DNA of 64,000 bases. Source: Paludibacteraceae bacterium (GTDB taxonomy: Bacteria; Bacteroidota; Bacteroidia; Bacteroidales; Paludibacteraceae). The stretch covers positions 649 to 64,648 of the forward strand of contig JAFXSS010000152.1 in the NCBI GenBank assembly GCA_017525455.1. The letters run 5' to 3'. The notes beneath the pieces are model-generated. The model made no database searches. It was not told the DNA's origin and saw only the letters and a list, made by a program, of their open reading frames with translations. Shown piece after piece: positions 2,876 through 61,246 of the stretch. Position 1 is the stretch's first letter, and each line of letters starts with the position of its first letter. The translations under genes and the position numbers were made by a program.

Positions 2876-3283
2876 TTATACAGGGTCAATAGCCTGTGCG
2901 ATGGAATTGGCTATCTGTGCCATCTCATCAGCGGGAAGCGAAAGCTTGGGGTTGGTAAAGAGCATATCCCGTTCCGAGTTCATCGGCACGAGATGAATAT
3001 GCACATGATTAACCTCCATGCCAAGCACAGCCACACCAACACGCTTGCATCCGGTAGCCTTCTTGATGCCGGCGGCTACTTTCTTGGCAAACAGCATGAG
3101 ACTTGCGAGCAACTCATCATCAAGGTCGAATATATAATCTGCTTCCGGTTCGGGCAACTTGGGGATAACCAAAGTGTGCCCCTTCACCAGCGGATTGATG
3201 TCAAGAAAAGCATAGCAGCAATCGCTCTCAGCCACCTTGTAACTGGGAATCTCACCATTGATGATTTTTGTGAAAATTGTCAT
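2876..3283 (-). CDS. HIT family (histidine triad) protein
   Basis: 135 aa with the HVHIHLVP histidine-triad motif near the C-terminus. Confidence 0.9.
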   Translation of the reverse strand: MTIFTKIINGEIPSYKVAESDCCYAFLDINPLVKGHTLVIPKLPEPEADYIFDLDDELLASLMLFAKKVAAGIKKATGCKRVGVAVLGMEVNHVHIHLVPMNSERDMLFTNPKLSLPADEMAQIANSIAQAIDPV

Positions 3284-3328
3284 AACCGATTACGTAGTTA
3301 GTACATTACTTTTTCAATACTTACATCA

Positions 3329-3799
3329 TTAAAGAGAAATCTCCAGCACCTCAAGTTCGAGAATGCCTGCGGGAACAGTAACCTGCGCCACTTCACCGAC
3401 TTTCTTTCCCAGCAATCCTTTGGCGATGGGTGTAGTAGAAGCAATCTTTCCCTCGGCAAGGTTAGCCTCGCTCTCGGTTACAATCTGATAGACTTTCTCA
3501 GCCCCATTCCTCTTATTACGTACACGTACGCGCGTGAGGATCTGCACCTCGTCGGTGTTGATAGTCGTTTCGTCAATAATGCGTGCATCAACAATCTTGC
3601 TCTTGAGTATAGCGATGCGCGTTTCCAAATGTCCTTGTTCCTCCTTGGCAGCATCGTATTCGGCATTTTCGCTGAGATCGCCTTTATCGCGTGCCTCTGC
3701 GATTGCCGCAATAACTCGCGGACGCTCCACGCTCTCAAGGAAGGACAGTTCTTCTTTCAGTTTCTGCAGACCTTCTGCAGTCATATAAGTTGTTGCCAT
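3329..3799 (-). CDS. greA: transcription elongation factor GreA
   Basis: 156 aa. It has the N-terminal coiled-coil with the DLSENAEYDAAKEEQ acidic tip motif and a C-terminal FKBP-like domain. Confidence 0.95.
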   Translation of the reverse strand: MATTYMTAEGLQKLKEELSFLESVERPRVIAAIAEARDKGDLSENAEYDAAKEEQGHLETRIAILKSKIVDARIIDETTINTDEVQILTRVRVRNKRNGAEKVYQIVTESEANLAEGKIASTTPIAKGLLGKKVGEVAQVTVPAGILELEVLEISL

Positions 3800-4099: not shown

Positions 4100-4246
4100 A
4101 ATTTTTTCCTTAATAAAAAACAAAACAAAAAAGTCTTCACAGCAAGGTAATTTTTGTCAGGTTCTAAAAACAACAGGAAACTTCCCAGCCTCCTGTTGCC
4201 ATTAAACCTAAACCTTAACTATGAAAATTTTATTTGTTTTCGAGTG

Positions 4247-4254
4247 CAAAGGTA
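4247..4254 (-). promoter_or_regulatory. Bacteroidota-type -7 promoter box (TAccTTTG)
   Basis: CAAAGGTA on the plus strand is TACCTTTG on the minus strand. A TTTGCA -33-like element lies about 20 nt upstream. Confidence 0.5.
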
Positions 4255-4375
4255 ATACATTTATTTTAATTATGCAAATATTTTTGCAAAAAAAAGCTCT
4301 TTTATAGTGTTTTTTTTTGTTTTTTTCGAAAAAAGCCCATTTTTGAACACAAAGTACTTCAAAAAAAGAGGGTTT

Positions 4376-11073: not shown

Positions 11074-11074
<1 letters not shown>
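10532..11074 (-). CDS. LOG family / TIGR00730 Rossmann-fold nucleotide-binding protein
   Basis: GGATGGLM and PGSYGTLDEMYD (PGGxGTxxE-like) motifs; 180 aa. Its ATG overlaps the gyrB stop (TAATG). Confidence 0.85.
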
Positions 11075-13164
<2,090 letters not shown>

Positions 13165-13313: not shown

Positions 13314-14381
13314 TTATTTTTGTCCGAGTCGGTTGAGGTGGCAGAGCATCAGGCTGCCGTCTTCCCGCCTGAGATGCATGCCGTTGCCTTCGCAGAAGTC
13401 GAAGGCTTTGCAGTCTTTGCACGGCTCCAATTTGCGCATCCAACTGCGGTCGCGATAGGGTTTGAATCCGTTCTCCCAGACCTGCCAGAACGAGTCTTTG
13501 TAAATATTTCCCTGATAGTACTTTCCGCGGATGCTTGTGCAGGCAGATATACTGCCGTCAATCAGTATCGATGCTACGCTTATACCCGCAGCGCACTGAT
13601 ATAGATGGTCGCGGACCTTTCCTTCGTAACTGCCCAGATAGCCTTCGCAGGAGTATGATACATGTCGTCCGGCCTCGCGTTCGGCAACTATGAAATCCAT
13701 CAGTTGCTTGAACTGCTCATCCGTCAGAATCAGTTCGGGGTTATCTGCAGCGCGACCCATGGGAGCGATGCCGAACACGCGCCAATCCCGCACTCCGAGG
13801 TTCCACAGCAACTCGCGGATAGCGGGTATATGATCTATTGTCCGCTGGTTGGCGCAAGTCACAACGTCCCATACCAACCCTTTCTCCGCGGCACAAAGTC
13901 TGATTGCCCTGCATGCGCCTTCGAAGGCCAGCGGGTGCTGGCGAAGCCATACATGATCTTCCTCCAGACCATCCAACGACACGGTGATTGATCGCAGTCC
14001 TGCTTTTCTAAGTTCGCGGAAGCGTGCTTCGGTCAGAGCCAAACCGTTGGTGACCATTCCCCACGGATAACCGCGGTCGTACAATGCCCGGCCTATTTGC
14101 GCCAGATCTTTGCGCATCAGCGGTTCGCCACCTGAGATGATGATAAGCACCTTGTGAGGATCGACATGAGGCGTAACCTCCGTGTCAATCACATGCAGGA
14201 AATCCTCCGCAAGCATATCGGGAGTCTGCACCGACGCTATGCAATCACTGCCGCAGTGCAGACAGTGGACATTGCAACGCAAGGTTGATTCCCAGAACAG
14301 TTGCTGCAGCGGATGCAACTCTTTCAGGTTCCTTCTGCGCCATTGTTCGAGGCGCAGTGCCAATCGTATTCTCAGGTTCAT
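13314..14381 (-). CDS. radical SAM protein with a SPASM/twitch-like Cys-rich C-terminal domain
   Basis: The radical SAM core shows in CNVHCLHC (Cx3Cx2C) and the GGEPLM glycine-rich SAM motif. The C-terminal Cys-rich region reads YSCEG...YQCAAG...ISACTS...EPCKDCKAFDFCEGNG...LCH. The start lies 3 nt after the stop of the upstream membrane protein. Confidence 0.85.
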   Translation of the reverse strand: MNLRIRLALRLEQWRRRNLKELHPLQQLFWESTLRCNVHCLHCGSDCIASVQTPDMLAEDFLHVIDTEVTPHVDPHKVLIIISGGEPLMRKDLAQIGRALYDRGYPWGMVTNGLALTEARFRELRKAGLRSITVSLDGLEEDHVWLRQHPLAFEGACRAIRLCAAEKGLVWDVVTCANQRTIDHIPAIRELLWNLGVRDWRVFGIAPMGRAADNPELILTDEQFKQLMDFIVAEREAGRHVSYSCEGYLGSYEGKVRDHLYQCAAGISVASILIDGSISACTSIRGKYYQGNIYKDSFWQVWENGFKPYRDRSWMRKLEPCKDCKAFDFCEGNGMHLRREDGSLMLCHLNRLGQK

Positions 14382-14384
14382 TGA

Positions 14385-15011
14385 TTAGAATCGTATAGTC
14401 ATTCCTACACCATTACCGGTCATACCGAGCGACATTTCCACATCGGTTTGCGGAGCCTGCGGCTGTTGCGGCATGAGGCATAGTTCGTTGTACGTATCAA
14501 CGCTCTTGCTCATCCGTTTGTAACCGACCGTCAGCAGCGGAACAGAACTGATCAGCGCCGCTCCTGCCAGAAAGCCCAGACCGAGGAATGTGCCGTTCTC
14601 TGCCACGAACTTCGGATCTGCAGGTTTCTCCGAATCAGCAACATCGGAAACCACGACACCTACGCCCGATACCAGCCATCCGATGAATGAGGTAGGTGCA
14701 CTTACCAGTCCGAAACCCAAGAGCACCCAGCCGGAGATCATACATTGCTGACCCTGCTTGTACTGTTGGTAAGCTTGCGGACATTCTTCATGAAGAAACT
14801 TCTTGTACGCCGAACCGTTCATCTGCAAATCGCCGCAGTAGTACTTGCCGCCGTCTTTGATAACCACCGACCGCTTTTGTTCCGGCTGTTGTACCGGTTC
14901 TTGCGATACCGTCTGCTCCTCGGTTGAGTTCAATTGTTGCGCCTGCATCGTTGTGCAGCAAGCCAACAAAAGTAATCCTGACAGCAGGAAAAGTTTTATA
15001 TTGTTTTTCAT
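14385..15011 (-). CDS. putative lipoprotein / two-TM membrane protein translationally coupled to the radical SAM gene
   Basis: MKNNIKLFLLSGLLLLAC lipobox-like signal, a Q-rich linker, a small Cys-containing ectodomain and two hydrophobic helices. The start was moved to the ATG at 15009-15011; the longer track ORF would overlap the serpin stop. Confidence 0.6.
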   Translation of the reverse strand: MKNNIKLFLLSGLLLLACCTTMQAQQLNSTEEQTVSQEPVQQPEQKRSVVIKDGGKYYCGDLQMNGSAYKKFLHEECPQAYQQYKQGQQCMISGWVLLGFGLVSAPTSFIGWLVSGVGVVVSDVADSEKPADPKFVAENGTFLGLGFLAGAALISSVPLLTVGYKRMSKSVDTYNELCLMPQQPQAPQTDVEMSLGMTGNGVGMTIRF

Positions 15012-15067
15012 TGTTATAGTGTTTTGCGGAAACAGCCACAAAAACCGTACCACAAAACGATCCGATA

Positions 15068-16336
15068 TTACTTCTCCCACGCCGGATGTCCGATGATAGC
15101 GGTGAAGAGAATCGTTCCGTAATCGCGCTCTCGGATGATCAGCACAAACGGCCGGTCTGCGATGAACTTGCGCCGATCCATCGGTTCGAATTCAGCATCT
15201 TTCGTCATACCTATCGTCACCGCTGCCGCTTCCGTGCCTTCTTCGTCGAACTGCATGAAGCAGTATTGCTTAATCAGGTTAACGAAAGTTGGTTGATTGC
15301 TCAGGTGCGAGAAATTTGCTCTGCTGCTGAACGCATCTTCCACTCCTAAGGCTTGCAGGTCGTCGTTCAGTTTGCGTTCGTACTTCAGCGCGAACTTGGG
15401 CAATGCCAGTTCTACCTCCGGTTGGAACATGTTTGCCAGCATCTCCTGCCATTGTTCAGCATCAAGTTCCTGCACCCATCTGCGGATATCTATACCCTCT
15501 GCCGGCAAGATAATATCTGCACAGTACTTACCGCCTTTGTACGGCAGTTCGAGCAACTGGTAATCATCATCCTCACCATACAGCATCTCGGCCGTACGAT
15601 GGAGCATGTTCGTCTGTATCTCATCACCGGCCAAGGTGGTGAACTTTTGAGGCTTGGTCAGTTCTTTCTTGAACTTATCCTGCCATTTTGCCTTGAAATA
15701 CAGGGCGTTGACCAGCGCCATTACAGTCTCGTCACTCACCATATCGCGAGTGATGATTTTCTTGATGAGATTGTTGGTATGCTGCGCTGCGAAGCGGTTG
15801 ATATCGTCAAGAACTTTCTGATCCGCGAAGGTCGGCACGTTCTTAGCCTCGGCATCGAAACTCCTTTTGCAAGCCTCTGTGTACTCAAGGAATATCGGGA
15901 ATCGCTCTGCCACCCATATACCATTAGCCAGTTTGACGTTTGTGTACTGATCCAATGCCGGCAAGACATCAATCAGTTGGCGATAGTACGCGTTGATCTC
16001 CGTTATCGGAGCATCGTCGTCAAACCCGAGCATCTCCCGAATCTGTTCGAGCGTCTCGCCGTCTGCACCATTCATCAGCATACCGAGCAGCATAGAGGCG
16101 GAAAGCGGCGAGAGGATAATATTCTCCTGCTGTTCGTCGGCCGCAGCCTGCGCCATCAAGTCGAAACTGAAATCGTTGCAGCCTTGCACCATTTCCTGCT
16201 CACTATAGGAGAACTGCAAGCGCTTGGGCTGCGAAACGCCGTTACCCGAACAGGACACAAACATGATCAAGCAAAACAGAATGGCGCACAATCCGAGCAC
16301 CACTCCACTGAACAGGATATTTCTCATTGTGTTCAT
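15068..16336 (-). CDS. serpin family lipoprotein (inhibitory-type hinge)
   Basis: The C-terminus reads EEGTEAAAVT (hinge) ...FIADRPFVLIIRE...ILFTAIIGHP (serpin signature). The N-terminal signal ends in a lipobox, FVSC. The start is ATG 16336 or 16327. Confidence 0.85.
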   Translation of the reverse strand: MNTMRNILFSGVVLGLCAILFCLIMFVSCSGNGVSQPKRLQFSYSEQEMVQGCNDFSFDLMAQAAADEQQENIILSPLSASMLLGMLMNGADGETLEQIREMLGFDDDAPITEINAYYRQLIDVLPALDQYTNVKLANGIWVAERFPIFLEYTEACKRSFDAEAKNVPTFADQKVLDDINRFAAQHTNNLIKKIITRDMVSDETVMALVNALYFKAKWQDKFKKELTKPQKFTTLAGDEIQTNMLHRTAEMLYGEDDDYQLLELPYKGGKYCADIILPAEGIDIRRWVQELDAEQWQEMLANMFQPEVELALPKFALKYERKLNDDLQALGVEDAFSSRANFSHLSNQPTFVNLIKQYCFMQFDEEGTEAAAVTIGMTKDAEFEPMDRRKFIADRPFVLIIRERDYGTILFTAIIGHPAWEK

Positions 16337-16435
16337 TTGTTTAACAATTGTGAGTAATCTATCTATCGTGTGAATATATACGCCCATCCTAAAGCAAACA
16401 TCCATGCTCCGGGATCGCCGTCTCGTAATTGTTGA

Positions 16436-17266
16436 TTACTGAGGAGTATGATACGAGAACCAGTTAGTAGTACGACTCTTCCCGGCGAACAGGCATGCAC
16501 ACCATTCGGTTGGTTCAGCGGGGTAGTCAACAGTTACCATACAACTACCCGGGCAGTGGTCCCCCATATTTGCTTCGCCACTAATGCATTTAGCAAACAA
16601 ATCTTCTGCATAACGTTCAATGCTTGTGTTTAACCGTTGGAGTTCGGCCGACGGACAACTGCAATAGAACAAATAATCTACTGCGAGGCTTGGAGATATT
16701 GATAGCTTGTCTGGTGACTTGTTTTTGTTAGGATTAAAGAATATTTTCACATCATTCATTATCTTTCCTTCTGCCGTTTTGAACGTGCAGACTGAAATCT
16801 TATCAGCATGGTAGTTATCGTCCGGATAGTATGCAAATGCCACATATTCTGTTTCTGGTGCGAGCGCATCCCATTCCGGCTCGCGAGATGTGCCCTTATA
16901 CAGAAAGTCTTCAATCTTTTCGGGTTCTTCCCATGGCTCTTCTCCGGGTTCCAATGGCTCCTCGTCATCACCATCATACGGATAGCCTTGATATATGTAA
17001 CGCAAATCAAATTCCCACTGGTGGTAATAGTATTCTCCGATAGTGTCTTTGAGTTCGGCAAAACGTTCGCAGGTCAAAACGTCCCAATAATAATACTTGT
17101 CGGCATACGCAGGTTCGACAGTGATGCTGACTTGCCGGTCTTGGATATTACTTACGGTAATACTAAAATCGGCATCTTTCACATTTTGTCTCGAGTTGCA
17201 ACCGGTTGTTAGGGTAACCAGTACGCTCGCTCCTATAGCAAGCAATATATATAAGATTCTTTTCAT
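16436..17266 (-). CDS. hypothetical lipoprotein (276 aa, acidic/aromatic-rich, Cys-rich C-terminal half)
   Basis: MKRILYILLAIGASVLVTLTTGC lipobox; no recognised domain. Confidence 0.6.
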   Translation of the reverse strand: MKRILYILLAIGASVLVTLTTGCNSRQNVKDADFSITVSNIQDRQVSITVEPAYADKYYYWDVLTCERFAELKDTIGEYYYHQWEFDLRYIYQGYPYDGDDEEPLEPGEEPWEEPEKIEDFLYKGTSREPEWDALAPETEYVAFAYYPDDNYHADKISVCTFKTAEGKIMNDVKIFFNPNKNKSPDKLSISPSLAVDYLFYCSCPSAELQRLNTSIERYAEDLFAKCISGEANMGDHCPGSCMVTVDYPAEPTEWCACLFAGKSRTTNWFSYHTPQ

Positions 17267-17284
17267 GATAATTGTTGACTATTT

Positions 17285-17503
17285 TCATAGTTCACTATCT
17301 TCAGCAGCTTCGCTTTCCGGCGTCTGTTCCCATTGCGCAGGGCGCACGCCGTACAGTGCTATGACATGCGGATCGTCAATAATGATCGGTTCCACGCCAT
17401 AATCCGTTGCGAACTGTTCGCAACTCGTCAGCGTTGTTCCTGCCAATCCGACAATCACAGCCCCGAGCGCAGCGTTGATGCGTTTCAATACTTTCTTGCG
17501 CAT
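17285..17503 (-). CDS. mini-lipoprotein (72 aa) with two YGVxP motifs and an acidic tail
   Basis: MRKKVLKRINAALGAVIVGLAGTTLTSC | EQFATDYGVEPIIIDDPHVIALYGVRPAQWEQTPESEAAEDSEL. It starts 1 nt after the upstream stop. Paralogous to 21560-21760. Confidence 0.6.
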   Translation of the reverse strand: MRKKVLKRINAALGAVIVGLAGTTLTSCEQFATDYGVEPIIIDDPHVIALYGVRPAQWEQTPESEAAEDSEL

Positions 17504-17504
17504 G

Positions 17505-17906
17505 TTATTCAGTTTTATTTTTTATCATGACAAATACGATTTCGTCTGCCGGGAAGGCACAATCCTTTTCCGGCACGAATCCGGTACCGCATTCAAACAT
17601 ATATCTGGGTGAGATAGACTGTTTCTGATATGCTCCTTTCTGATCAATCGCCGTTACGGTTACATGCGGAATAGGATAGGGCACGTCCTTTATTCGCGAA
17701 TAGAAATAGCCATTTTCGTCGGTACTGACGACGCTCGGGAAACGTACGCCTTCTACTGTTATTTCAATTGCTATACCTTGCAAAAACTCTTCATTCTCAT
17801 TCTGCACAGTGCCATACGTGCTAATGCTAGTCGTATGCATGTGCTTGCAGCCGACCAATACGCTCATTCCTATCATGAGCAGTATAAGTGATATGTATTT
17901 CTTCAT
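17505..17906 (-). CDS. lipoprotein, diverged carboxypeptidase-regulatory-like (CarboxypepD_reg) fold
   Basis: MKKYISLILLMIGMSVLVGC lipobox. ...STYGTVQNENEEFLQGIAIEITVEG...DENGYFY matches the G-x-V-x-D/N...P-L-x-G-[IV] pattern of the neighbouring paralogs. Confidence 0.6.
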   Translation of the reverse strand: MKKYISLILLMIGMSVLVGCKHMHTTSISTYGTVQNENEEFLQGIAIEITVEGVRFPSVVSTDENGYFYSRIKDVPYPIPHVTVTAIDQKGAYQKQSISPRYMFECGTGFVPEKDCAFPADEIVFVMIKNKTE

Positions 17907-17973
17907 AATTGTTGGTGGTATTTGACAATTAATTAGAATCTCACGCTCGGCCATTGTTGACCGATTCTCCCCG

Positions 17974-18411
17974 TTACTTCTTCTTCAGTTGAAAATCCTG
18001 ATGTACATAGCCGGCACCTTGATTCCAATTATCGCCCCATGCCACTTTGCTGCGATCGTAATCCACTTTTACACTCACGGAGTCCGATGCATATACGCCT
18101 GTCGTGTCGGTCACAATAATATCCAAGGAATCCGCAGGGAAGAGACCGTATGGGCCGACTTTATATGTTCCGTCATCGGCGGTATAAACATCGGACATAG
18201 TTCCGCGGTAATCGAGATTCGGACGATACCTGTCTTTGAACGTAACCCGTATGTTCTCTAACGGTTTGTTCTCCTCGTTGGTTATTGTACCTGTCGCCTC
18301 AAACGTCGCGTGAGGCGTTCCGTATTCGCAACGGAAACATCCATTAAGCCCTAATATGCCTAGCAGCAAAGCAATCAACGCATTGATGCCGGTTAACACT
18401 TTCCTTTTCAT
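17974..18411 (-). CDS. lipoprotein with a CarboxypepD_reg-like domain; resembles the family named 'radical SAM-associated putative lipoprotein'
   Basis: MKRKVLTGINALIALLLGILGLNGC FRC EYGTPHATFEATGTITNEENKPLENIRVTF... It is a paralog of 21779-22231. The start was moved to the ATG at 18409-18411, downstream of the promoter box. Confidence 0.7.
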   Translation of the reverse strand: MKRKVLTGINALIALLLGILGLNGCFRCEYGTPHATFEATGTITNEENKPLENIRVTFKDRYRPNLDYRGTMSDVYTADDGTYKVGPYGLFPADSLDIIVTDTTGVYASDSVSVKVDYDRSKVAWGDNWNQGAGYVHQDFQLKKK

Positions 18412-18459: not shown

Positions 18460-18467
18460 CAAAATTA
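18460..18467 (-). promoter_or_regulatory. -7 promoter box (TAatTTTG) of cassette A
   Basis: CAAAATTA on the plus strand, with a -33-like TTTGCATAT 15 nt upstream on the minus strand. Confidence 0.5.
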
Positions 18468-18482
18468 CAACAAATTTCCGAT

Positions 18483-18587
18483 ATATGCAAATAATTTTGT
18501 GGATTTGAATTTTCGCTTAAATGATTGTTTTTCAGCAAAAAGTCATTTCGAGCGTGTGGAAATGTGACAAAATCGGTTATTTAGGGA
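18483..18587 (-). repeat. conserved upstream element, copy A (105 bp)
   Basis: Base-by-base comparison with 22291-22395 gives 2 mismatches in 105 bp (18494 and 18508). It starts 15 nt upstream of the -7 box, the same offset as the other copies. Confidence 0.9.
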
Positions 18588-18602
18588 AGAAATCCGGCAT
18601 GT

Positions 18603-19985
18603 TTATTCCCTCTCTGCGTGCGCCCGTCTGCTCCGCACACACTGCTCTGCCAGGGGGTAATACTTCGTTCCCTCAAACATCCGAAGCATCATTTCGTCTC
18701 TGTCAGCTTCTGTTTGTTCCCGTCTTTCCGGTGCATCGTAGCCCTGTCTGTTTGTCTTTTCAGACCAACTATATATTACTTCCCCTTTCAGATTGATATA
18801 CTTATATACATTCAGTCGGGGATTCTCAGTGTCAACAACCAAGCATAACTCGTTGTGTACGCCGGAACTAATGAGGCTTGCGGGCATCTTATCCCATGTG
18901 TCCATTGACAGCACCACTTCCCCTTGCAGGTTGATTATACAATATAAGTTTACATCTACTTCAGTGGATTTGATGCTCATCGTGGTTGATTTCCATACCC
19001 ATGCATACTCTCCATAAAACGGGTCTGCGTATGCGTATTGATAGGGGATCTGCACTATGCCGTTCTTGTCGATATAGCCATATAATCCTTGGTTGTTACG
19101 CACCGGCATAAGGCCTCCGTCGCCGAAGAAGTTTTCTCCTCCAAGATATATGTTCTGTTCGGTTATTATGTTTCCTTGCGTATCCATTAGTCCGGCGTAC
19201 GTCCAATCACTATCCTTCAATTTATAGAGCAACCTGTCATTTCCAACCGACTGCAAATATGGGTATATGGTGTCTATCACCAATTCGCCCTTGGTGTTGA
19301 TTGCACCGTAGACGTAATAACTTTGTGATTCGTCGGACCAACTTTTGTCAACTACCGCTATGCCGTCGCAGAAATCATACAACTTCCAGTATCTTTCTCC
19401 ATCTACGCCGTTGATATAACTGGAGATTGCTATTTCTCCTTTTTTGTTGTAGTACCCGAAGATGGATGCTGCCAATCCGTCTTTTGTCATCGGTCCTAAT
19501 GGCGTAATGAGGCCATTATCCATAGGCGCAAGAATGGTGCTGAAATGATTGTCCATTATGCCGGTTTTGCGCATGTCGCCGTATCTGCAGCAACCGTAGT
19601 AAAAGTAATGGTCCAAGAATCCCTGACCTTCCGGAAGGGTGTAAACGACTTCACCTTTCTTGTTGATGAATGCGTGTTGGGGGCCAAGGGTGGGCACTTG
19701 GTATCCGGTGCTACGTAAAGGCTCACCGTCAACATCAATATACACCTGAGCCACGCCACCCGAGAATCCGTACGTCCGGTCATATTTCGCAGGAATGACC
19801 ATTTCGCCTTTTTCGTTGATGAAGCCCCAGTAACCCGTGCTGTCTGCCGCCGGCCACAGCATGGTGGTATCTTCTTCCGGAGTCTGCGAGAAAGGTTCGT
19901 TACAGCCGGTCAGTATTCCTGCCAATCCGACAATCACTGCCCCGAGCGCAGCGTTGATGCGTTTGAGAATTCGTTTTTTCATCAT
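18603..19985 (-). CDS. WG (KWG-type) repeat-containing lipoprotein
   Basis: MMKKRILKRINAALGAVIVGLAGILTGC lipobox. It has at least 7 repeats of the YGFI[ND]xKGExVIP type (YWGFINEKGEMVIP, YGYIDKNGIVQIP, YKYINLKGEVIY ...). Its start overlaps the upstream stop (ATGATGA). Confidence 0.8.
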   Translation of the reverse strand: MMKKRILKRINAALGAVIVGLAGILTGCNEPFSQTPEEDTTMLWPAADSTGYWGFINEKGEMVIPAKYDRTYGFSGGVAQVYIDVDGEPLRSTGYQVPTLGPQHAFINKKGEVVYTLPEGQGFLDHYFYYGCCRYGDMRKTGIMDNHFSTILAPMDNGLITPLGPMTKDGLAASIFGYYNKKGEIAISSYINGVDGERYWKLYDFCDGIAVVDKSWSDESQSYYVYGAINTKGELVIDTIYPYLQSVGNDRLLYKLKDSDWTYAGLMDTQGNIITEQNIYLGGENFFGDGGLMPVRNNQGLYGYIDKNGIVQIPYQYAYADPFYGEYAWVWKSTTMSIKSTEVDVNLYCIINLQGEVVLSMDTWDKMPASLISSGVHNELCLVVDTENPRLNVYKYINLKGEVIYSWSEKTNRQGYDAPERREQTEADRDEMMLRMFEGTKYYPLAEQCVRSRRAHAERE

Positions 19986-20365
19986 TCGACTTTTGTCTTT
20001 GATACTACTTTTACTAACTCGTACCATTGGTTCCGAAAGTCAGTAGGGGGATTCTTGTATGAGCTCTCTTTCACAATCAGTTTGCACTCGTATCCTTCCT
20101 CAAACACGAAACCTTCGATGGCCATTCCTTGTATGTTCGGGTCGGTGGAGAATAGTTGTATTGTTCCGTCATCTTCCCATCGTCCGCGGTATATCGGAAC
20201 GAGGGTCGGTTCCGGAGACATCGGCCATGCATTTATCTCCATCTCCGTGAGTGTAGGTTCGGTGATGAGTGCTCTCGTCTTGCTATTGACACCACCGTTT
20301 TCACATGCTGCCAACCCGATGCCCAGCACTATCAGAGCAATGATGAAGAAAATAACCTTTTTCAT
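19982..20365 (-). CDS. small lipoprotein, DUF4377-like
   Basis: MKKVIFFIIALIVLGIGLAAC lipobox. The GFVFEEGYECKLIVKE...NPPTD...YELVKVVSKTK pattern is recalled from DUF4377 proteins; this was not verified. Confidence 0.55.
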   Translation of the reverse strand: MKKVIFFIIALIVLGIGLAACENGGVNSKTRALITEPTLTEMEINAWPMSPEPTLVPIYRGRWEDDGTIQLFSTDPNIQGMAIEGFVFEEGYECKLIVKESSYKNPPTDFRNQWYELVKVVSKTKVE

Positions 20366-20369
20366 ATAC

Positions 20370-20846
20370 CTATTGCTGATTGTTGACCGACAAATTGAGT
20401 TTTTTCAAACCCTGATAGTACCCCACAGGCCCCTCGTCGCCACCGTATGACTCGAACTCCCACTCCATGTAATCTTTTGTAAGTTTGTGGATGGTAATCG
20501 GCGAGCACCCTCCATCCAAGTTCCGCTTCTTATCGTAGTACCCTTCTACAGTCATCAGCCATTTGCCGTTGTCTTGCTGTCGCAGGGTATATGGCCCGGG
20601 AAGATAGTATCCTGTCGGCGATACGGGCTGCATGAATTTTTCGTCAAAAACGAGTGTCATGTCATTATTCACTTGGCGAGTGAATATTCCGCCAAACCCG
20701 TCGCCGTTGGCAACTGTTTCTTTTTCCACTTTCCATTGTCCGATGAGCAGTTTCTGTACGTCTTCTTTCTGCTCCGGCAAATTCTGCCTGCAATTTGCCA
20801 TCAAGGTTATCACCATCAACAGCAATAACATGTGATTCATTTTCAT
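20370..20846 (-). CDS. lipocalin-like domain lipoprotein
   Basis: LMANC lipobox. The LIGQWKV...IHKLTKDYMEWEF pattern is typical of Bacteroidales lipocalin-like domains. Confidence 0.55.
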   Translation of the reverse strand: MKMNHMLLLLMVITLMANCRQNLPEQKEDVQKLLIGQWKVEKETVANGDGFGGIFTRQVNNDMTLVFDEKFMQPVSPTGYYLPGPYTLRQQDNGKWLMTVEGYYDKKRNLDGGCSPITIHKLTKDYMEWEFESYGGDEGPVGYYQGLKKLNLSVNNQQ

Positions 20847-20880
20847 AACGCGAATGAGTTTATCTCTTTAAGTTTCTGTT

Positions 20881-21537
20881 CTACGGGCGGAAACCTATAC
20901 CTATTCGCAGTACGGAAGACGAGCCGATGTTTGTTTCCACGAGTCCGAACACGCGTTCGTTGCCGAAGTTCAATCCTATAGGTGTCATGTTAGCGGCAGG
21001 CAGGTAGAAACCCTCGACCGCACCGCTGGCGTACTGTGAAATATGCATGCCTACGCCTACAGACAATCCGGAATACAAGCGTACATGCTCGCGATTGATG
21101 TAGGTAAAATCCACGCGTGCCACAACACTGACATCATGCGTGCGGTAGTTTCCCGCCCAGCACTCGTAGTTGACGCTTGCGCCCAGCCGGAGCCAGCGCA
21201 GGATGTTATAACCATAATCAATTGCCCAAGCGCCTGTAAAGATGTCTGAGCGCGCCGAACCGCTTGAAGATCCCGGCGCAGGGATGTAGAAATTCCACGA
21301 GTGACTGCCGAACGCCGTGGAGTAGACACTGGGCAGACCGACAGAAAGCGATACGCTCTGCCGATGTTCGCGCCAGTCGTATCCTTTGCGTACGGGCATC
21401 GGAGCGGGAGTCTCTTTGCGAACTACAACAACGGTCTGCGGTGCTTGCTCCTGCGGACCGATTTCAGTTTGCACCTCTTGTGCGGACATGCCTGCCGTGC
21501 ACAGCAGCAGACAGATTGCAATCATTGACTTTTTCAT
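20881..21537 (-). CDS. putative outer-membrane beta-barrel protein
   Basis: Signal peptide ...CTAGMSA|QE, followed by alternating hydrophobic beta-strand patterning that ends ...LRIGIGFRP. Confidence 0.5.
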   Translation of the reverse strand: MKKSMIAICLLLCTAGMSAQEVQTEIGPQEQAPQTVVVVRKETPAPMPVRKGYDWREHRQSVSLSVGLPSVYSTAFGSHSWNFYIPAPGSSSGSARSDIFTGAWAIDYGYNILRWLRLGASVNYECWAGNYRTHDVSVVARVDFTYINREHVRLYSGLSVGVGMHISQYASGAVEGFYLPAANMTPIGLNFGNERVFGLVETNIGSSSVLRIGIGFRP

Positions 21538-21559
21538 ACGTTTGTCCTCCATATGATTT

Positions 21560-21760
21560 TCATTGTTCGCAATCCTCAACACTCTCCCAAGTGGTAGGTG
21601 TCACGCCATACATCGGTTTCAATCCCGGGTCATCCAGATCCCCCTGATATATCGGCGGTACGCCATACTCAACCGTACACCCCGTAAGAGCAGACCCGGT
21701 CAATCCGACAATCATTGCCCCTAGAGCGATGTTGAGATGTTTGAGTAGCGATTTTTTCAT
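21560..21760 (-). CDS. mini-lipoprotein (66 aa) with two YGVxP motifs and an acidic tail
   Basis: MKKSLLKHLNIALGAMIVGLTGSALTGC | TVEYGVPPIYQGDLDDPGLKPMYGVTPTTWESVEDCEQ. Paralog of 17285-17503. Confidence 0.6.
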   Translation of the reverse strand: MKKSLLKHLNIALGAMIVGLTGSALTGCTVEYGVPPIYQGDLDDPGLKPMYGVTPTTWESVEDCEQ

Positions 21761-21778
21761 TGTACCATATTTTTGCGT

Positions 21779-22231
21779 TTAATCATTATCGGCTTTTTTG
21801 CCAAGCACAAAGTCCTGTTGCACTTCGGCCTTACCGCAATTCCAGTGATCCTGCTTCGATACGCCGCTACGGTCGAACTCCAGTCCTCCTACATTGACCG
21901 AATCGGATTCATATACGCCAGCGGTGTCGCGAACGATGATTTCAAACGAGTCTCTCCAAGGATGGGTTTGGGTTCGCCACGCATATTGTCCATCCGAATT
22001 GGTAGAGCAAACGACATAGCCTAAAGAGCCATTCTCTCTATCCCATCTGTCTCTAACAGCCACTTGGATATTCTCCAACGGTTGCTCCTGCTCATCGGTT
22101 ACGGTACCGGACATTTCAAACGTTGCATACGGCGAGCCATACTCGCTATAACCTATGTGGCAACTGACACCCAGCAACCCCATCAGCGTCGCTATCAGGG
22201 CATTGATACCTGCCAAAATACTCTTTTTCAT
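21779..22231 (-). CDS. lipoprotein with a CarboxypepD_reg-like domain (paralog of 17974-18411)
   Basis: MKKSILAGINALIATLMGLLGVSC HIGYS EYGSPYATFEMSGTVTDEQEQPLENIQVAV... The start was moved to the ATG at 22229-22231. Confidence 0.7.
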   Translation of the reverse strand: MKKSILAGINALIATLMGLLGVSCHIGYSEYGSPYATFEMSGTVTDEQEQPLENIQVAVRDRWDRENGSLGYVVCSTNSDGQYAWRTQTHPWRDSFEIIVRDTAGVYESDSVNVGGLEFDRSGVSKQDHWNCGKAEVQQDFVLGKKADND

Positions 22232-22267: not shown

Positions 22268-22275
22268 CAAAGGTA
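22268..22275 (-). promoter_or_regulatory. -7 promoter box (TAccTTTG) of cassette B
   Basis: CAAAGGTA on the plus strand, with a -33-like TTTGCATAT 15 nt upstream. Confidence 0.55.
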
Positions 22276-22290
22276 CAACAATTATTTCAA

Positions 22291-22395
22291 ATATGCAAAT
22301 ATTTTTGTGGATTTGTATTTTCGCTTAAATGATTGTTTTTCAGCAAAAAGTCATTTCGAGCGTGTGGAAATGTGACAAAATCGGTTATTTAGGGA
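22291..22395 (-). repeat. conserved upstream element, copy B (105 bp)
   Basis: Near-identical to 18483-18587 (2 mismatches). Confidence 0.9.
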
Positions 22396-22657
22396 CCAAA
22401 TTGTCATCCCAATTCACCTCCGAGGCATTGCTGTTTTGCGTGCTGTGCGCATCTTGGTTGTCAATAATTCGCAAGGCATTGGGATCCGGACGTCCTCCTC
22501 CGTTGCCTTTTGGGTTATCACCTTTTCCGCTTGGAGGATTCATGTCATTTTTACCAGCCATACAGCTCACCATAACTACCATCACGGCGCTAAGAAATGC
22601 AACCTTACACAAGCGGAAGGCTATATGGTCAAACTTGATAGTATCTGATTGTGCCAT
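22385..22657 (-). CDS. small G/P/N-rich lipoprotein (90 aa)
   Basis: ...AFLSAVMVVMVSC lipobox, then a low-complexity stretch GKNDMNPPSGKGDNPKGNGGGRPDPN. Its stop codon (TAA, 22385-22387) lies inside repeat copy B. Confidence 0.45.
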   Translation of the reverse strand: MAQSDTIKFDHIAFRLCKVAFLSAVMVVMVSCMAGKNDMNPPSGKGDNPKGNGGGRPDPNALRIIDNQDAHSTQNSNASEVNWDDNLVPK

Positions 22658-22725
22658 TGTCTGCTTTCGTTATACATTTGCCTATGAATGCCGGCGTCTA
22701 CTTGGATACCGGTATTTTGTTTATA

Positions 22726-24198
22726 TCAATTCAGTTCCCCCGTCATCAGCCTGATCATTTGCTGCTTCAGTTCACGGGAGTTCGTGCCGAGTTTGTTAGC
22801 CGTGTGCTGCTTGAAGTTACGTATACCGCTCTGTCCGTAATGCAGCAGTGCCGCCAGTTGCTTGCTGTCGAAGCAATCCATCATCACCAGCACGCAGAGC
22901 CTGAGTTCTTTGTCCGTCAGGTCACCTTTGGCTTTCAGTTTGTCAGCCAGCATGAAGAACTGCCTGTTCACGACAGCGCAAAACTGCTCATAATCTTTCC
23001 AGCACAACGTCTGCTTCCAGTCGTCGGCACGCAGCAGCGTTTCGATGTTCTTCGCCACCTCTTGCTCTATTTTCACCCGTCGGTCGTCAAACTGCTGCTG
23101 CAGTTGGGCATTCTGCTTCTGGCGTGCATGTATGAACGCCTGCGCCCGTTGTTTCTCGTGCGCAATCTCAGCCATCGAACGCTGGTGCTGCCTGCGGATG
23201 TTATACCACCACGCGAGCAACGCCACTATCAGACAAAGCACTCCCGCCAGCAGCAATCCCCATCTGCGCGGCGGTGTATTCATATCCTGCTCCAGCAGTT
23301 CGACCGCATGCGACAGGTCTCCCTGGTCATTGGCAATCACACGCAGCACCGCAGCACGTTCTGCCGCCGCCGCGCGCACATCCTCGAGTTGAGCCGTGCT
23401 GTCCTGCTGGGTAAGTATGTACAATGCATTGGCTCGCAGGAAAAGATGATCGGTAGCCTGCAGCACCTGACGGGCATAATATGTAGCCGAGTCATACTGA
23501 ACCAGATACGAATAACATTGCCCCTTGATCATCATCAGCGACGGCGCTGCCGCCTGCTCGCCTTCAACCATATTCGCATACTGCAAGCCACGGGTGTAAT
23601 CACCTGCACGCATATATGCTTCAGCATAAGTCTCGTAGCACATGGCCAACAACAGTGAATCTGTTACCGATTGAATGACAGGCTCCAGCAATGCCCGCAC
23701 ACCGGCCGTATCGCTCTGCTCAGCCAGGGCGTAGGCCATATTGGTCAGACCAATGCGGTAACGCATAGAGTCACCGGCCTGCAAAAACGCCTGCGTCGAG
23801 CGCTCGTACATAGTGCAGGCCAATGAGTAGTTACTCTCCATTCGGCAGATATAAGCGATATTGCTGTACACGCGTCCAAGCAACTCCTGATCATTCGTGC
23901 GTGCAGCACGCGCGTATAATAGATAAGGCATAGCCTCGGAGTAACTCCTATTGATGCGCAACAGCCGTCCGTAGAAGAAACAGGCCTTGGCGTAAGACGT
24001 AGGCATCAATACGCGCCAAGGCGACAATGCATGCACAGCCTGATGCAAAGCCTCGGCATCGTCAAACACCTGGTCAGCCTGCAGCAAACTGTCGGCCTGA
24101 GCAACCGTGGCGCGAGCCTCATGCACCGAACGGCACGAAGTCATGGCAAACGCAAAAGCGCAGAGCAAAAGCAATACTATGTACAGGCGTTTTTTCAT
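22726..24198 (-). CDS. one-component transmembrane regulator: signal/lipobox, TPR-like ectodomain, single TM, coiled coil, C-terminal LuxR-like HTH
   Basis: MKKRLYIVLLLLCAFAFAMTSC signal. TPR-like repeats follow (YSEAMPYLLYA, YSLACTMYERS, YAEAYMRAGDY ...). The TM segment is WGLLLAGVLCLIVALLAWW. The C-terminus reads LTDKELRLCVLVMMDCFDSKQLAALLHYGQSGIRNFKQHTANKLG. The start was moved to the ATG at 24196-24198, downstream of the promoter box. Confidence 0.7.
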   Translation of the reverse strand: MKKRLYIVLLLLCAFAFAMTSCRSVHEARATVAQADSLLQADQVFDDAEALHQAVHALSPWRVLMPTSYAKACFFYGRLLRINRSYSEAMPYLLYARAARTNDQELLGRVYSNIAYICRMESNYSLACTMYERSTQAFLQAGDSMRYRIGLTNMAYALAEQSDTAGVRALLEPVIQSVTDSLLLAMCYETYAEAYMRAGDYTRGLQYANMVEGEQAAAPSLMMIKGQCYSYLVQYDSATYYARQVLQATDHLFLRANALYILTQQDSTAQLEDVRAAAAERAAVLRVIANDQGDLSHAVELLEQDMNTPPRRWGLLLAGVLCLIVALLAWWYNIRRQHQRSMAEIAHEKQRAQAFIHARQKQNAQLQQQFDDRRVKIEQEVAKNIETLLRADDWKQTLCWKDYEQFCAVVNRQFFMLADKLKAKGDLTDKELRLCVLVMMDCFDSKQLAALLHYGQSGIRNFKQHTANKLGTNSRELKQQMIRLMTGELN

Positions 24199-24229: not shown

Positions 24230-24237
24230 CAAAGATA
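24230..24237 (-). promoter_or_regulatory. -7 promoter box (TAtcTTTG) of the regulator gene
   Basis: CAAAGATA on the plus strand, with -33-like TTTGCATAT at the same 15 nt offset as in cassettes A and B. Confidence 0.55.
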
Positions 24238-24252
24238 CGAAAAAAAAATGAT

Positions 24253-24345
24253 ATATGCAAATTTTTTTGTGGAAATTTCACTTTGCATAAACTGCTGTTT
24301 ATCAGCGCAAAAAGCATTCCTGCCTGTGGAAAAGTGATTTTACCT
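24253..24345 (-). repeat. conserved upstream element, diverged copy C
   Basis: It aligns to copies A and B with many substitutions and one 2 nt indel. It keeps ATATGCAAAT, TTTTGTGGA, TCAGC..AAAAAG and TGTGGAAA.GTGA, and the two TGTGG cores are 57 bp apart as in copy B. Confidence 0.6.
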
Positions 24346-53259: not shown

Positions 53260-55026
53260 ATGAAAAAAGTAGTGCAATCTGTATTCGTCGTGTCGTTGGC
53301 GTTGCTGGCATTGGCCGGTTGTAAGTCGCGCGAATTGAACACTCAATTCTCAAACACGACTGGATGGAACTATTATGACGAAAAAACCACAAACTTCGAA
53401 GCTAAAGAAGGTGTAGGAAATGTTGACCCGATTGGCATGGTGGCTATTCAGGGTGGAACATTTGCCATTGGTCAGACCGATGAGTTCGTTACCGCTCCGC
53501 GCGACAATGCCCGCCGTTCGGTTACCGTCAGCTCGTTCTGGATGGACAAGTATGAGATCTCCAACCTCAACTGGCGTGAGTATATGCATTGGCTGGAGAT
53601 GGTGTTCGGCTATGCTGCTCCCAAACTCGTTCAGTCGGCCTTGCCTGACACATTGGTTTGGCGCGATGAATTGGCATACAACGAACCGTATGTCGAGAAC
53701 TATTTCCGTCATCCGGCTTTCAGTTTCTACCCTGTTGTAGGTATCAACTGGAATCAGGCGATGGAGTACTGCCAGTGGCGTACCGACCGAGTTAACGAGT
53801 TGGCACTGGTTCATGCCGGTGCTATCGAGTTCCCGGATTTTCAGATACTCCGCGCGCTGGATGAGACCGAACTCGAAGACTGGCGTAACGACAACCCCGG
53901 TTACGAGCCTATTGAGGTTGAAGTTACCAATGGCGAGGACATTAATATCGAGTATCACGTACCGTACGAGTGGATACGCGACAAGTTCGTATTCAATACC
54001 GAGAAATATCTCGTTCGCAGGGATTACAACCCCGTTAATCCGGATGCTTCGCGTCGTAGCAAACGGTTCCATGACGCTTGGGGCAATGCACGTAAGGTTG
54101 ACCGTACCGATGGTATTCTGGTTACCGGCTACCGTCTGCCGACAGAGGCAGAATGGGAGTTCGCTGCTTTCGCACCTATCGCCGGAACCGACGGTTTGAC
54201 TATCGAAGGCAAGGTTTATCCCTGGTCAGGCTATCACCCACGTGACTTGAGTAAGAACAACATGGGTATGATGCAGGCCAACTTCATCCGCGGTAAGGGC
54301 GATATGATGGGTGTATCCGGCATGCTTAACGACGGATACGTTATCACCAACCCTGTTGACGCTTTTGCGCCGAACGATTTCGGATTGTACAACATGGCAG
54401 GCAACGTCAACGAGTGGGTAATGGACGTTTATCGTGAGACTACATATCAGGACGTGACCGAGTACAACTCTTTCCGTGGTAATATCTACAGCCGCGCTAA
54501 GAAAGATGACCAGGGCGAGTTCGTTATCAACGCTCGCGGTGGCATCGATGTTGAATGGACCAGCGAGGACGATAAGCGTGATTACCTCGACGGCGACTTT
54601 GCTTCGCTCATCCAGACCGATTACCCGCTTGATACACTCGGCGCACTGTTCCTCAAAGGCCTGGCTGCCAATACTGAAGGCAACGGCGGTGGCGATGAGG
54701 AAGAGGAAGAAGAGGAAGAAGAGGGTGATGAGGAAGAAGGCGGCGACGAAGAAGAAGGCGGCGATGAGGAAGAAGAGGAAAGTGAAGACGATGGCGGTGC
54801 TGCTGTTACCGAGAAGAAGATCGACCCGACCGACATCTATGCTCCCAAGATCACCAAGACCACCCATGTTTACAAAGGTGGTTCGTGGAACGACCGCGTT
54901 TACTGGTTGCACCCGTCGTCACGTCGTTACCTCGAGGCTGACAAGAGCAAGAGTACACTGGGATTCCGCTGCGCTATGTCAACGATTGGTGACCAGATTC
55001 CTTCAGGTCCGAACCCGGGCAAGTAA
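53260..55026 (+). CDS. SUMF1/FGE-domain lipoprotein, GldJ/GldK(PorK)-family-like, with an internal poly-E/G insertion
   Basis: LALLALAGC lipobox. MVAIQGGTFAIGQ and VYKGGSWNDRVYWLHPSSRRYL...LGFRCA are FGE-sulfatase domain hallmarks. The length and architecture resemble GldJ. Confidence 0.7.
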   Translation: MKKVVQSVFVVSLALLALAGCKSRELNTQFSNTTGWNYYDEKTTNFEAKEGVGNVDPIGMVAIQGGTFAIGQTDEFVTAPRDNARRSVTVSSFWMDKYEISNLNWREYMHWLEMVFGYAAPKLVQSALPDTLVWRDELAYNEPYVENYFRHPAFSFYPVVGINWNQAMEYCQWRTDRVNELALVHAGAIEFPDFQILRALDETELEDWRNDNPGYEPIEVEVTNGEDINIEYHVPYEWIRDKFVFNTEKYLVRRDYNPVNPDASRRSKRFHDAWGNARKVDRTDGILVTGYRLPTEAEWEFAAFAPIAGTDGLTIEGKVYPWSGYHPRDLSKNNMGMMQANFIRGKGDMMGVSGMLNDGYVITNPVDAFAPNDFGLYNMAGNVNEWVMDVYRETTYQDVTEYNSFRGNIYSRAKKDDQGEFVINARGGIDVEWTSEDDKRDYLDGDFASLIQTDYPLDTLGALFLKGLAANTEGNGGGDEEEEEEEEEGDEEEGGDEEEGGDEEEEESEDDGGAAVTEKKIDPTDIYAPKITKTTHVYKGGSWNDRVYWLHPSSRRYLEADKSKSTLGFRCAMSTIGDQIPSGPNPGK

Positions 55027-60904: not shown

Positions 60905-61246
60905 GCCATACATCAGATGTTTCTTCTTATTCTCGCGCCAGCCGGCTTGGTACTCATGGTCTACAAAGCATATCTTCAGGTCAGCTTGATACTCGTGGTC
61001 AACAAAGTATATCTTCACATCCGCCTGATACTCATGGCTCACAAAATACCATCGGCCTTTATTGCCTTCCGCCTGATATTCATGGCTCTCCTTGTACACC
61101 AGCAGGTCGGCTTGATACTCATGATCCACCACATATACCTTAACATCGGCCTGATACTCATGGTCGGTGGAGTAAACTTTCTGCGCATGTACGGTTGCGG
61201 CACACAATAGGGTCAACACGATGACCGTCAATCGATGATGTTTCAT
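60893..61246 (-). CDS. secreted tandem-repeat protein (six ~13 aa units, [VI]DHEYQAD-x-K-[VI]-Y-x-V)
   Basis: Signal peptide MKHHRLTVIVLTLLCAATVHA|QK. Then KVYSTDHEYQAD / VKVYVVDHEYQAD / LLVYKESHEYQAE / WYFVSHEYQAD / VKIYFVDHEYQAD / LKICFVDHEYQAG, followed by a basic tail. Confidence 0.7.
   Translation of the reverse strand: MKHHRLTVIVLTLLCAATVHAQKVYSTDHEYQADVKVYVVDHEYQADLLVYKESHEYQAEGNKGRWYFVSHEYQADVKIYFVDHEYQADLKICFVDHEYQAGWRENKKKHLMYGKKK

Follow-up and report, generated by a model that had tools for sequence, protein, structure and literature searches.

The cluster and its three element copies

We analysed a 64,000-nt stretch of contig JAFXSS010000152.1, referred to below as the window (coordinates are 1-based within the whole stretch). 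Three copies of an element of ~105 bp, A (18483-18587), B (22291-22395) and C (24253-24345), head three predicted transcription units of one ~11-kb cluster. All three copies, like the genes that they serve, are functionally oriented on the minus strand. The element is a real, non-chance cis-regulatory module. From the sequences of the copies and their relatives, we consider it likely that each copy is a regulated Bacteroidetes promoter with an operator of the regulator encoded alongside, a SusR-like, membrane-anchored one-component protein that combines a TPR domain, a transmembrane segment and a LuxR-type helix-turn-helix (HTH). The predicted units and genes are listed below.

13314-18411, minus strand: operon from copy A, with genes for a TIGR04134 lipoprotein (17974-18411), a 133-aa protein, a 72-aa lipoprotein, a 276-aa protein, a serpin (15068-16405), a 187-aa protein and the TIGR04133 radical SAM/SPASM enzyme (13314-14381)
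18603-22231, minus strand: operon from copy B, with genes for a TIGR04134 lipoprotein (21779-22231), a 66-aa lipoprotein, a beta-barrel-like 214-aa protein, a 158-aa protein, a 127-aa DUF4377 protein and a 459-aa WG-repeat protein
22385-22657, minus strand: small gene for a 90-aa lipoprotein, with its stop codon in the upstream block of copy B
22726-24198, minus strand: gene for the candidate cognate regulator (490 aa), with copy C upstream

Copies A and B matched at 103 of 105 positions (mismatches at 18494 and 18508 only), and their identity dropped to background within a few bases, to 13/47 upstream and to 20/29 and then 12/34 downstream. The proteins encoded downstream of A and B are paralogues with 48% identity. 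Copy C aligned to A without gaps and matched at 60 of 93 positions. In all three copies, the reverse complement of the -7 box, CAAAnnTA, ended 15 nt before the start of the element, and the two TGTGG cores (18498/18555, 22306/22363 and 24268/24325) were 57 bp apart. Our recount confirmed the first-pass annotation on the three ~105-bp copies, the 15-nt register, the 57-bp spacing and the two differences between A and B.

The composite pattern TTTCCACASGC-N(44-52)-TCCACAAAAWWATTTGCATAT, spanning the two boxes and the -33 region, was run on the window and on 100 shuffles of it. It had exactly three matches in the 64 kb, namely A, B and C, each with a gap of 48 nt, and was found in 0/100 shuffles. 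The full-length window matches of an nhmmer profile of the element were the same three copies; its other matches covered the core-promoter part only. A possible fourth copy at 4216-4286 was rejected, as it resembles B over the core promoter only and has no boxes.

In gene orientation, each copy is composed of a distal box TTCCACA, a central dyad (GCTGAT..CAGC-like), a proximal box TCCACAAAA, a -33 TTTG and a -7 TAnnTTTG. The box core, TCCACA, occurs twice per copy in direct orientation. Copy A, in the gene sense, starts with CCCTAAATAA, followed by 17 nt and GTCACAT-TTCCACA (the distal box), and ends, after the dyad spacer, with A-TCCACAAAA, 3 nt, TTTG (-33), 20 nt and TAATTTTG (-7). The individual features are as follows.

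18460-18467, minus strand: -7 box of copy A, TAATTTTG, fitting TAnnTTTG with TTTG 20 nt upstream; predicted promoter of the second TIGR04134 operon
18488-18491, minus strand: -33 element TTTG of copy A, a column invariant across all homologous copies
18495-18503, minus strand: proximal box TCCACAAAA of copy A, at about -48 to -40, with columns invariant in 9 aligned copies, for which the search pattern itself had selected
18519-18548, no strand: central dyad of copy A, AAATGAcTTTTT-GCTGAA-AAAcAaTCATTT, with 12-nt arms that are 83% complementary, midway between the boxes
18555-18568, minus strand: distal box GTCACATTTCCACA of copy A, with core TCCACA at 18555-18560, 57 bp from the proximal box
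18577-18586, minus strand: extra upstream block CCCTAAATAA of copy A, present in 8/12 clade copies and absent from C
22268-22275, minus strand: -7 box of copy B, TACCTTTG
22303-22311, minus strand: proximal box TCCACAAAA of copy B
22327-22356, no strand: central dyad of copy B, from an inverted-repeat search
22363-22376, minus strand: distal box GTCACATTTCCACA of copy B
24230-24237, minus strand: -7 box of copy C, TATCTTTG, in the predicted promoter of the regulator gene
24265-24273, minus strand: proximal box TCCACAAAA of copy C
24294-24306, no strand: palindrome-like centre of copy C, GCTGATAAACAGC, matching the family consensus GCTGATTATCAGC at 11/13 positions
24325-24337, minus strand: distal box TCACTTTTCCACA of copy C

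The -33 TTTG and -7 TAnnTTTG of the Bacteroidetes housekeeping sigma factor, at a spacing of ~19-21 nt, are present in A, B and C, which are thus predicted promoters. The block ATATGCAAAT had been put forward as specific to the element. Together with its 15-nt offset, it also occurs at unrelated promoters in the window (e.g. 4245, 13244, 29803, 38254 and 49238), and by its sequence it is a generic Bacteroidetes -33 promoter element rather than a specific site. The start site in Bacteroidetes promoters usually lies about 5 nt after the -7 box. If this is assumed here, the proximal box would run from about -48 to -43 and the distal box from about -105 to -100, with the dyad near -75. Scans for sigma-70 promoters and terminators gave matches at chance level; such scans are ill-suited to Bacteroidetes promoters.

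We also observed a block GTCCC[TA]A[AT]ATA 27 nt upstream of the distal box (18577-18586 and 22385-22394). It recurs in the related loci L004, L005, L013 and L017 and is missing from copy C, L010 and L012; in copy B it holds the stop codon of the 90-aa gene. Two plus-strand open reading frames, 18521-18796 and 22329-22754, both starting with MIVFQQKVISSVWKCDKIGYLG, were dismissed as chance frames. They share an N-terminus because the DNA of A and B is nearly identical, and the sequence is absent from C and from the orthologous elements.

The adjacent regulator

The AlphaFold model of the regulator (predicted local distance difference test score, pLDDT, of 92.5) consists of an N-terminal membrane/signal helix, a TPR domain (residues 48-306), one long helix (313-390) and a helical C-terminal domain (~394-486). 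The long helix would form a membrane span plus a stalk, placing the TPR sensor outside the cytoplasmic membrane. The model has the SusR-type layout, in which the sensor is N-terminal and extracytoplasmic, the membrane is spanned once and the HTH lies in the cytoplasm at the C-terminus. When the C-terminal domain was modelled alone (pLDDT 91.7), its top structural matches were all DNA-binding domains of the LuxR/GerE/NarL type. They include GerE (template modelling score, TM, of 0.68; root-mean-square deviation of 2.0 Å), VraR, LiaR, DosR, EvgA, RcsB and a Bacteroides LuxR-domain protein.

Precomputed Pfam annotation recorded SusR_C (PF19904.7) for the window C-terminal fragment P0067, P0083 and P0003, and marked the full-length window protein only as "faint". 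With a local Pfam copy, five of 37 relatives of the regulator matched GerE and six matched sigma-70 region 4. Against the sequences of solved structures, a profile of the full regulator found TPR proteins only, and a profile of the C-terminal domain found LuxR-type domains at non-significant E-values only. A further profile search with the C-terminal domain returned gene fragments only, which supplied names and Pfam tags but no link to named SusR proteins. On the models and profiles taken together, the regulator appears to have a SusR architecture and a LuxR-type HTH, and its membership of the SusR family by sequence is weakly supported.

Among the structural matches of the TPR sensor (residues 48-306), which are otherwise generic TPR proteins, are the peptide-binding receptors RapH and NprR. 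Together with the small secreted protein encoded after the regulator, these matches hint at a peptide or protein ligand.

Distant relatives carry paired boxes of their own

A search with a profile built from 37 homologues of the regulator yielded another 79 loci, comprising ~550 kb of metagenome DNA, mostly from the rumen. Their regulators are 30-38% identical to that of the window. We counted exact 7-mer direct repeats in these loci with no prior motif. The counts peaked at a distance of 57 bp, with 254 pairs. Most other multiples of 3 gave ~70-130 pairs (the highest, 48, gave 206), and the remaining distances ~35. The commonest words at 57 bp were TTCCCAC and TCCCACA, and smaller signals were seen at 55 bp (TTTCCCAAT) and 56 bp (GTCCACGC). 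When 8-mer pairs were anchored to promoters (TTTG-N-TAnnTTTG, pairs just upstream of -33), there were 33 cases at 57 bp, 16 at 55 bp and five at 56 bp; every other distance from 45 to 84 bp had at most two.

The set was extended to 81 loci by L019 and L020, which were fetched through individual homologues. In 54 of the 81, the element begins within ~20 nt of the regulator stop codon on the same strand, so that the distant loci place it after the regulator gene and not before. At least ten box types occur among the distant loci, and both boxes are alike within each element. The types are TTCCCACA, TTTCCCAAT, T[AG]TCCACG, TTGCCCACA, TTGCCCATT, TTGTCTAT, TGTAGACC, TTCTACAT, TCATAGTG and GTCCTCATT. 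Each pairs with its own sequence in the predicted recognition helix: box TTCCCACA with GKLKD[HQ]TAK, box TTTCCCAAT with SGLGKFK.TTARK, and box TCCAC[AG] with SGIRNFK. The SGIRNFK of the window protein is common to the TCCACG class. Box similarity correlated with HTH similarity (Mantel r = 0.51, reached by 0/2000 permutations), compared with r = 0.13 (reached by 206/2000 permutations) for the gene on the other side of the element.

The family consensus cTGAttaTCAg lies midway between the boxes in all three spacing classes, and the central dyad of copy A corresponds to the GCTGATnATCAGC-like centre of the distant elements. In L020, the most distant example examined by eye, a central GCTGATAA and a TTTAnGCAAA block are as far from the distal box as their counterparts in copy C. 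Since the centre is kept across specificity classes, it is probably either read by something common to all loci or structural. Its role could be to bind a protein that bends or organises the DNA, to serve as a terminator or insulator, or to bind a second regulator.

This conserved dyad is also an argument for a different reader of the element. A second regulator, a sigma-factor-related protein or a nucleoid protein, rather than the adjacent regulator, might bind the boxes, and something common to all loci probably does read the dyad. The boxes themselves speak against such a factor. At least ten locus-specific types require locus-specific readers, and a shared global factor cannot account for boxes that differ from locus to locus. 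The sequence around the recognition helix follows the box type, and no DNA-binding protein other than the adjacent regulator is common to all these loci. We therefore regard binding of the boxes by another factor as unlikely.

The distant loci also share a small gene. In 37 of 49 distinct distant loci, the element is directly followed by a gene for a conserved secreted protein of ~131 aa, with a mean pairwise identity of 61%. It is present whatever the box type, and variable lipoprotein genes come next. The protein (e.g. L051, 7662-8057) gave weak matches to DUF3244 (E = 1e-4) and to a type IX secretion system sorting domain (E = 0.0075). A comparison of the 90-aa protein of the window with the 131-aa protein of the distant loci revealed no sequence similarity. 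Locus L051 has a second element at ~11074-11190, 3.6 kb downstream of the first and before other small genes, with the same box type (TTCCCAC, 57 bp). By this prediction, distant regulators can also have more than one operator.

Close relatives and a probable gene conversion between A and B

To find close relatives, we scanned 185,579 species, each represented by one genome, with both boxes plus TTTG as the query. Fourteen stretches were returned. Six were true homologues from four Bacteroidales/Paludibacteraceae metagenome-assembled genomes, all inside the orthologous cluster beside the orthologue of the regulator. Eight of the 14 were rejected as conserved Firmicutes coding sequence or isolated chance matches (L003, L006-L009, L011, L014-L016). 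With one contig added through a 60%-identical regulator, an nhmmer profile gave 12 full-length copies in six genomes, counting the window. All 12 are confined to this cluster, with none elsewhere in the fetched DNA.

Copies lie upstream of the regulator in the window, L005, L010 and L012, upstream of the TIGR04134 operon in the window (twice), L004, L013, L017 and L005 (there via a 140-aa gene), and upstream of the WG-repeat gene in L013 and L017. Across the clade copies, no variation was seen in the two boxes, their 57-bp spacing, a few central positions or the core promoter, whereas the spacer varies freely, matching at only ~70% between orthologues whose flanks are identical. The L005 copy at 3267-3425, which was not chosen by the search pattern, also carries TCCACAAAA and the 57-bp spacing, with the distal box TATCCACA.

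When copy A was compared with its orthologue in UBA1180, its flanks matched at 50/50 positions upstream and 60/70 downstream, whereas its interior matched at 76/105, against 103/105 with B. The "A-type" spacer that the window has lost is common to three other genomes. With flanks like those of the orthologue and an interior like that of B, the simplest reading of the sequences is that a recent gene conversion of about 110 bp overwrote the interior of A with that of B. The near-identity of A and B would then be no measure of constraint.

These comparisons bear on what the first-pass annotation had proposed. The core of its regulon idea is supported, in that full-length copies keep to the cluster in six genomes, boxes, spacing and core promoter are fixed in the clade while the spacer drifts, and box and HTH co-vary in the distant homologues. 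Its claim that the noncoding element is held more constant than the coding DNA falls with the gene conversion, which it had itself named as an alternative and which the comparison with UBA1180 upholds for A. Autoregulation fits the window, where copy C precedes the regulator gene. It is not universal, since the L017 (P0009) lineage has a regulator without an upstream copy, and the distant elements follow their regulators.

Gene conversion also underlies the next alternative, that the similarity is a by-product of duplication or conversion of paralogous promoters, with no function upstream of -33. The overwritten interior of A, with its identical flanks, and the paralogous genes downstream of A and B are what this explanation would predict. 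It does not account for copy C and the copies in five other genomes, which keep the boxes and the 57-bp spacing as the spacer diverges, nor for the elements beside regulators of 30-38% identity, which keep the architecture with different boxes. We find it very unlikely.

Folding of the spacer

In the TTTCCCAAT/55-bp class, the spacer is a hairpin of 10-16 bp followed by a T-run (z -3.6 to -6.6). The arms show compensating changes (L028, L036, L054, L055, L059, L074, L085, L090), and the hairpin is probably the terminator of the regulator gene, embedded in the operator. The 57-bp classes fold weakly, and the mean z over all 50 elements was about -1.9. Copies A and C of the window, folded on both strands, were like shuffles (z -1.3 to -1.7).

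These results matter for the possibility that the conserved stretch works as RNA, i.e. as a small RNA, a leader, a 3' untranslated region element or a terminator. Other genes end just upstream of copies A and B, where read-through transcription is possible, and the 55-bp subfamily does have a strong hairpin with a T-run. However, the element is upstream of the promoter that it accompanies, copy C lies between divergently oriented genes and no gene reads into it, and the window copies fold no better than shuffles. Moreover, no Rfam 15 match reached the gathering score anywhere in the window, and what is conserved is a pair of identical direct-repeat boxes, not pairing. An RNA role is therefore highly improbable. 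A small mobile or MITE-like (miniature inverted-repeat transposable element) repeat inserted before three genes is less credible still: the copies are short, noncoding and in two cases nearly identical, but a search for terminal inverted repeats and target-site duplications gave only the internal dyad and chance pairs, the 64 kb hold three copies only, the register to -33 and -7 is fixed, and the true matches among the 185,579 species all fell within orthologous clusters.

Genes predicted to be served by the element

The cluster includes a strong match to TIGR04133 (522 bits, cut-off 425) and two to TIGR04134, the family of radical SAM-associated putative lipoproteins (89.7 and 92.7 bits, NCBIfam cut-off 39.8). 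Protein family searches found no SusC/D or glycoside hydrolase families among the proteins of the regulated cluster. The 90-aa lipoprotein gene is probably co-transcribed with the regulator; in L005, relatives of this lipoprotein with the GGGRPDPN motif also come after the regulator.

In both TIGR04134 lipoproteins (17974-18411 and 21779-22231, minus strand), the lipobox cysteine is followed by a motif [ED]YG[TSV][PE], which occurs twice each in the 66-aa (21560-21760) and 72-aa (17285-17503) lipoproteins, also on the minus strand. The lipoproteins that bear it could be substrates of the TIGR04133 radical SAM/SPASM enzyme of the cluster. A separate DNA repeat of 65 nt (17439-17503, 19918-19982 and 21696-21760; 75-83% identity) encodes a lipoprotein signal peptide, M(K/R)K..LKRINAALGAVIVGLAG, common to the 72-aa, 459-aa WG-repeat and 66-aa proteins, which are otherwise different. 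Two further repeats in the window are unrelated to the element: a GAA/GAG/GGC-rich coding repeat at 54676-54807, encoding an acidic Glu/Gly/Asp tract, and 61-nt direct repeats with spacings of 39 and 87 nt at 60938-61163.

Proposed mechanism

In the mechanism that we favour, the regulator would sense something outside the cytoplasm through its TPR domain, and its C-terminal LuxR-type HTH would occupy both boxes, presumably with one protomer per box. It would then most likely activate three units, the first (from copy C) comprising its own gene and that for the small lipoprotein, and the others (from B and A) being the operons of the TIGR04133/TIGR04134 cluster. The sequence comparisons show the architecture, its confinement to the cluster, the pattern of conservation and the co-variation of box and HTH across the family; binding, its stoichiometry, activation rather than repression and the part played by the dyad are inferred.

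Several observations weigh against this interpretation. A distance of 57 bp is ~5.4 helical turns, so that two protomers on straight DNA would not be on the same face. The core promoters are near-consensus, and dependence on an activator is not obvious from their sequence. By the criterion used, 27 of the 81 distant loci have no element, several of them being short contigs. Some co-variation of box and HTH would arise simply because neighbouring DNA is inherited together, a concern that the downstream-gene control lessens without removing. As for the protein, the LuxR-type structural matches have poor E-values (0.36-2), as is usual with small domains, although the family of the matches is uniform. 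The link to SusR_C is weak by sequence: with the local Pfam copy, PF19904 reached E < 0.01 in five of 37 family members, and the window protein had no match.

A more ambitious version, which we rate as doubtful, extends the proposed SusR-like regulation to a large number of circuits, each orthogonal to the others, in Bacteroidales of the rumen and gut, with a helix-to-box code, dyad-bent DNA and secreted-protein feedback. Each regulator with the TPR-transmembrane-LuxR arrangement would read its own box pair, with at least ten natural classes. The boxes would be joined by a sharp bend or fold at the central dyad, which a shared DNA-bending protein or a hairpin-like structure would bring about. 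Such U-shaped DNA would put the direct repeats in a two-fold relation, and a symmetric membrane-tethered dimer could hold both. Finally, the small secreted protein (the 90-aa lipoprotein here, the ~131-aa DUF3244-like protein in relatives) might act on the TPR sensor in a self-inducing, signalling-like loop.

Comparison with known systems

As reported by Ravcheev et al. (2013, PMC3878776), the sites of SusR-like regulators of Bacteroides were computationally predicted to be direct repeats of two boxes 67 or 77 bp apart. The authors, who noted that the sites were untested predictions, treated SusR (BT3705), SusR2 (BT3091), SusR3 (BT3309) and SusR4 (BT2160), and their alignments show the boxes AATCCACTACTTTTTT/AAACCACTATATTTTTT, TATCCACTTTTTT/AATCCACTTATT and ATCTACATTTTTT/ATCTACATAAAGT (PMC3878776). 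The elements described here resemble those sites in having paired direct boxes with a long spacer of fixed length, located before promoters of operons beside the regulator gene. Both kinds of regulator sit in the membrane, with a sensor outside the cytoplasm and an HTH at the cytoplasmic C-terminus (predicted here), and the motifs diverge in step with the regulators. The boxes are also alike, with AATCCACT.., TATCCACTT.. and ATCTACAT.. in Bacteroides and TTCCACA and ATCCACAAAA here.

The two also differ. The spacing is 57 bp here (55-57 bp in relatives) and not 67 or 77 bp, i.e. 10 bp, or about one turn, below 67. The centre is dyad-symmetric and conserved across specificity classes. The targets would be the TIGR04133/TIGR04134 cluster and, in relatives, small DUF3244-like secreted proteins instead of SusC/D polysaccharide utilisation loci, and the sequence link of the regulator to SusR_C is weak. 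The literature that we searched held no experimental mapping of SusR binding sites or of the activation mechanism, only the 2013 computational prediction for four Bacteroides regulators. The kind of site is thus already known from computational prediction, whereas the 55-57 bp geometry and the central dyad appear, by sequence, to be a new variant.

The hybrid two-component systems of Bacteroides have AraC-type regulators with kinase and receiver domains, and direct repeats that are much closer together (PMC3878776). They share with the present elements the direct repeats upstream of -33 of neighbouring operons and a membrane-anchored reader, and are set apart by that domain composition and closer spacing.

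More remote parallels exist outside Bacteroidetes. ToxR and CadC of Proteobacteria are membrane-bound one-component activators with an N-terminal winged-helix domain of the OmpR type and a different sensor fold. As proposed here, a single membrane-spanning protein senses the outside and uses repeated sites just upstream of the activated promoter. Nothing suggests common descent. The RRNPP regulators of Firmicutes (Rap, NprR, PlcR, PrgX) are cytoplasmic receptors that bind imported peptides. Likewise, they link a TPR sensor to an HTH, by fusion or by coupling, and the gene directly downstream of the receptor gene codes for a small secreted protein. The TPR domain of our regulator is predicted to lie outside the cytoplasmic membrane, and TPR folds are generally alike, so the resemblance may be read as an analogy only.

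Significance

SusR-type regulators are a Bacteroidetes-specific class of membrane-anchored transcription factors, and the question of their sites now becomes testable. The window offers a test case with three predicted operators, one regulator and ~11 kb of target genes. The related loci add ~50 predicted regulator-operator pairs in at least ten specificity classes and three spacings (55, 56 and 57 bp). These data allow testing of how a membrane-tethered protein reads two sites ~19 nm apart, and the pairs are a possible source of orthogonal promoters and regulators for engineering Bacteroidales. They also provide a first regulatory handle on the uncharacterised TIGR04133/TIGR04134 radical-SAM/lipoprotein system, of which we found a passing mention only in the literature. 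The three copies of the window, taken alone, are ordinary promoter biology; the helix-to-box co-variation, together with the fixed 55-57 bp geometry, gives a testable handle on this class of regulators.

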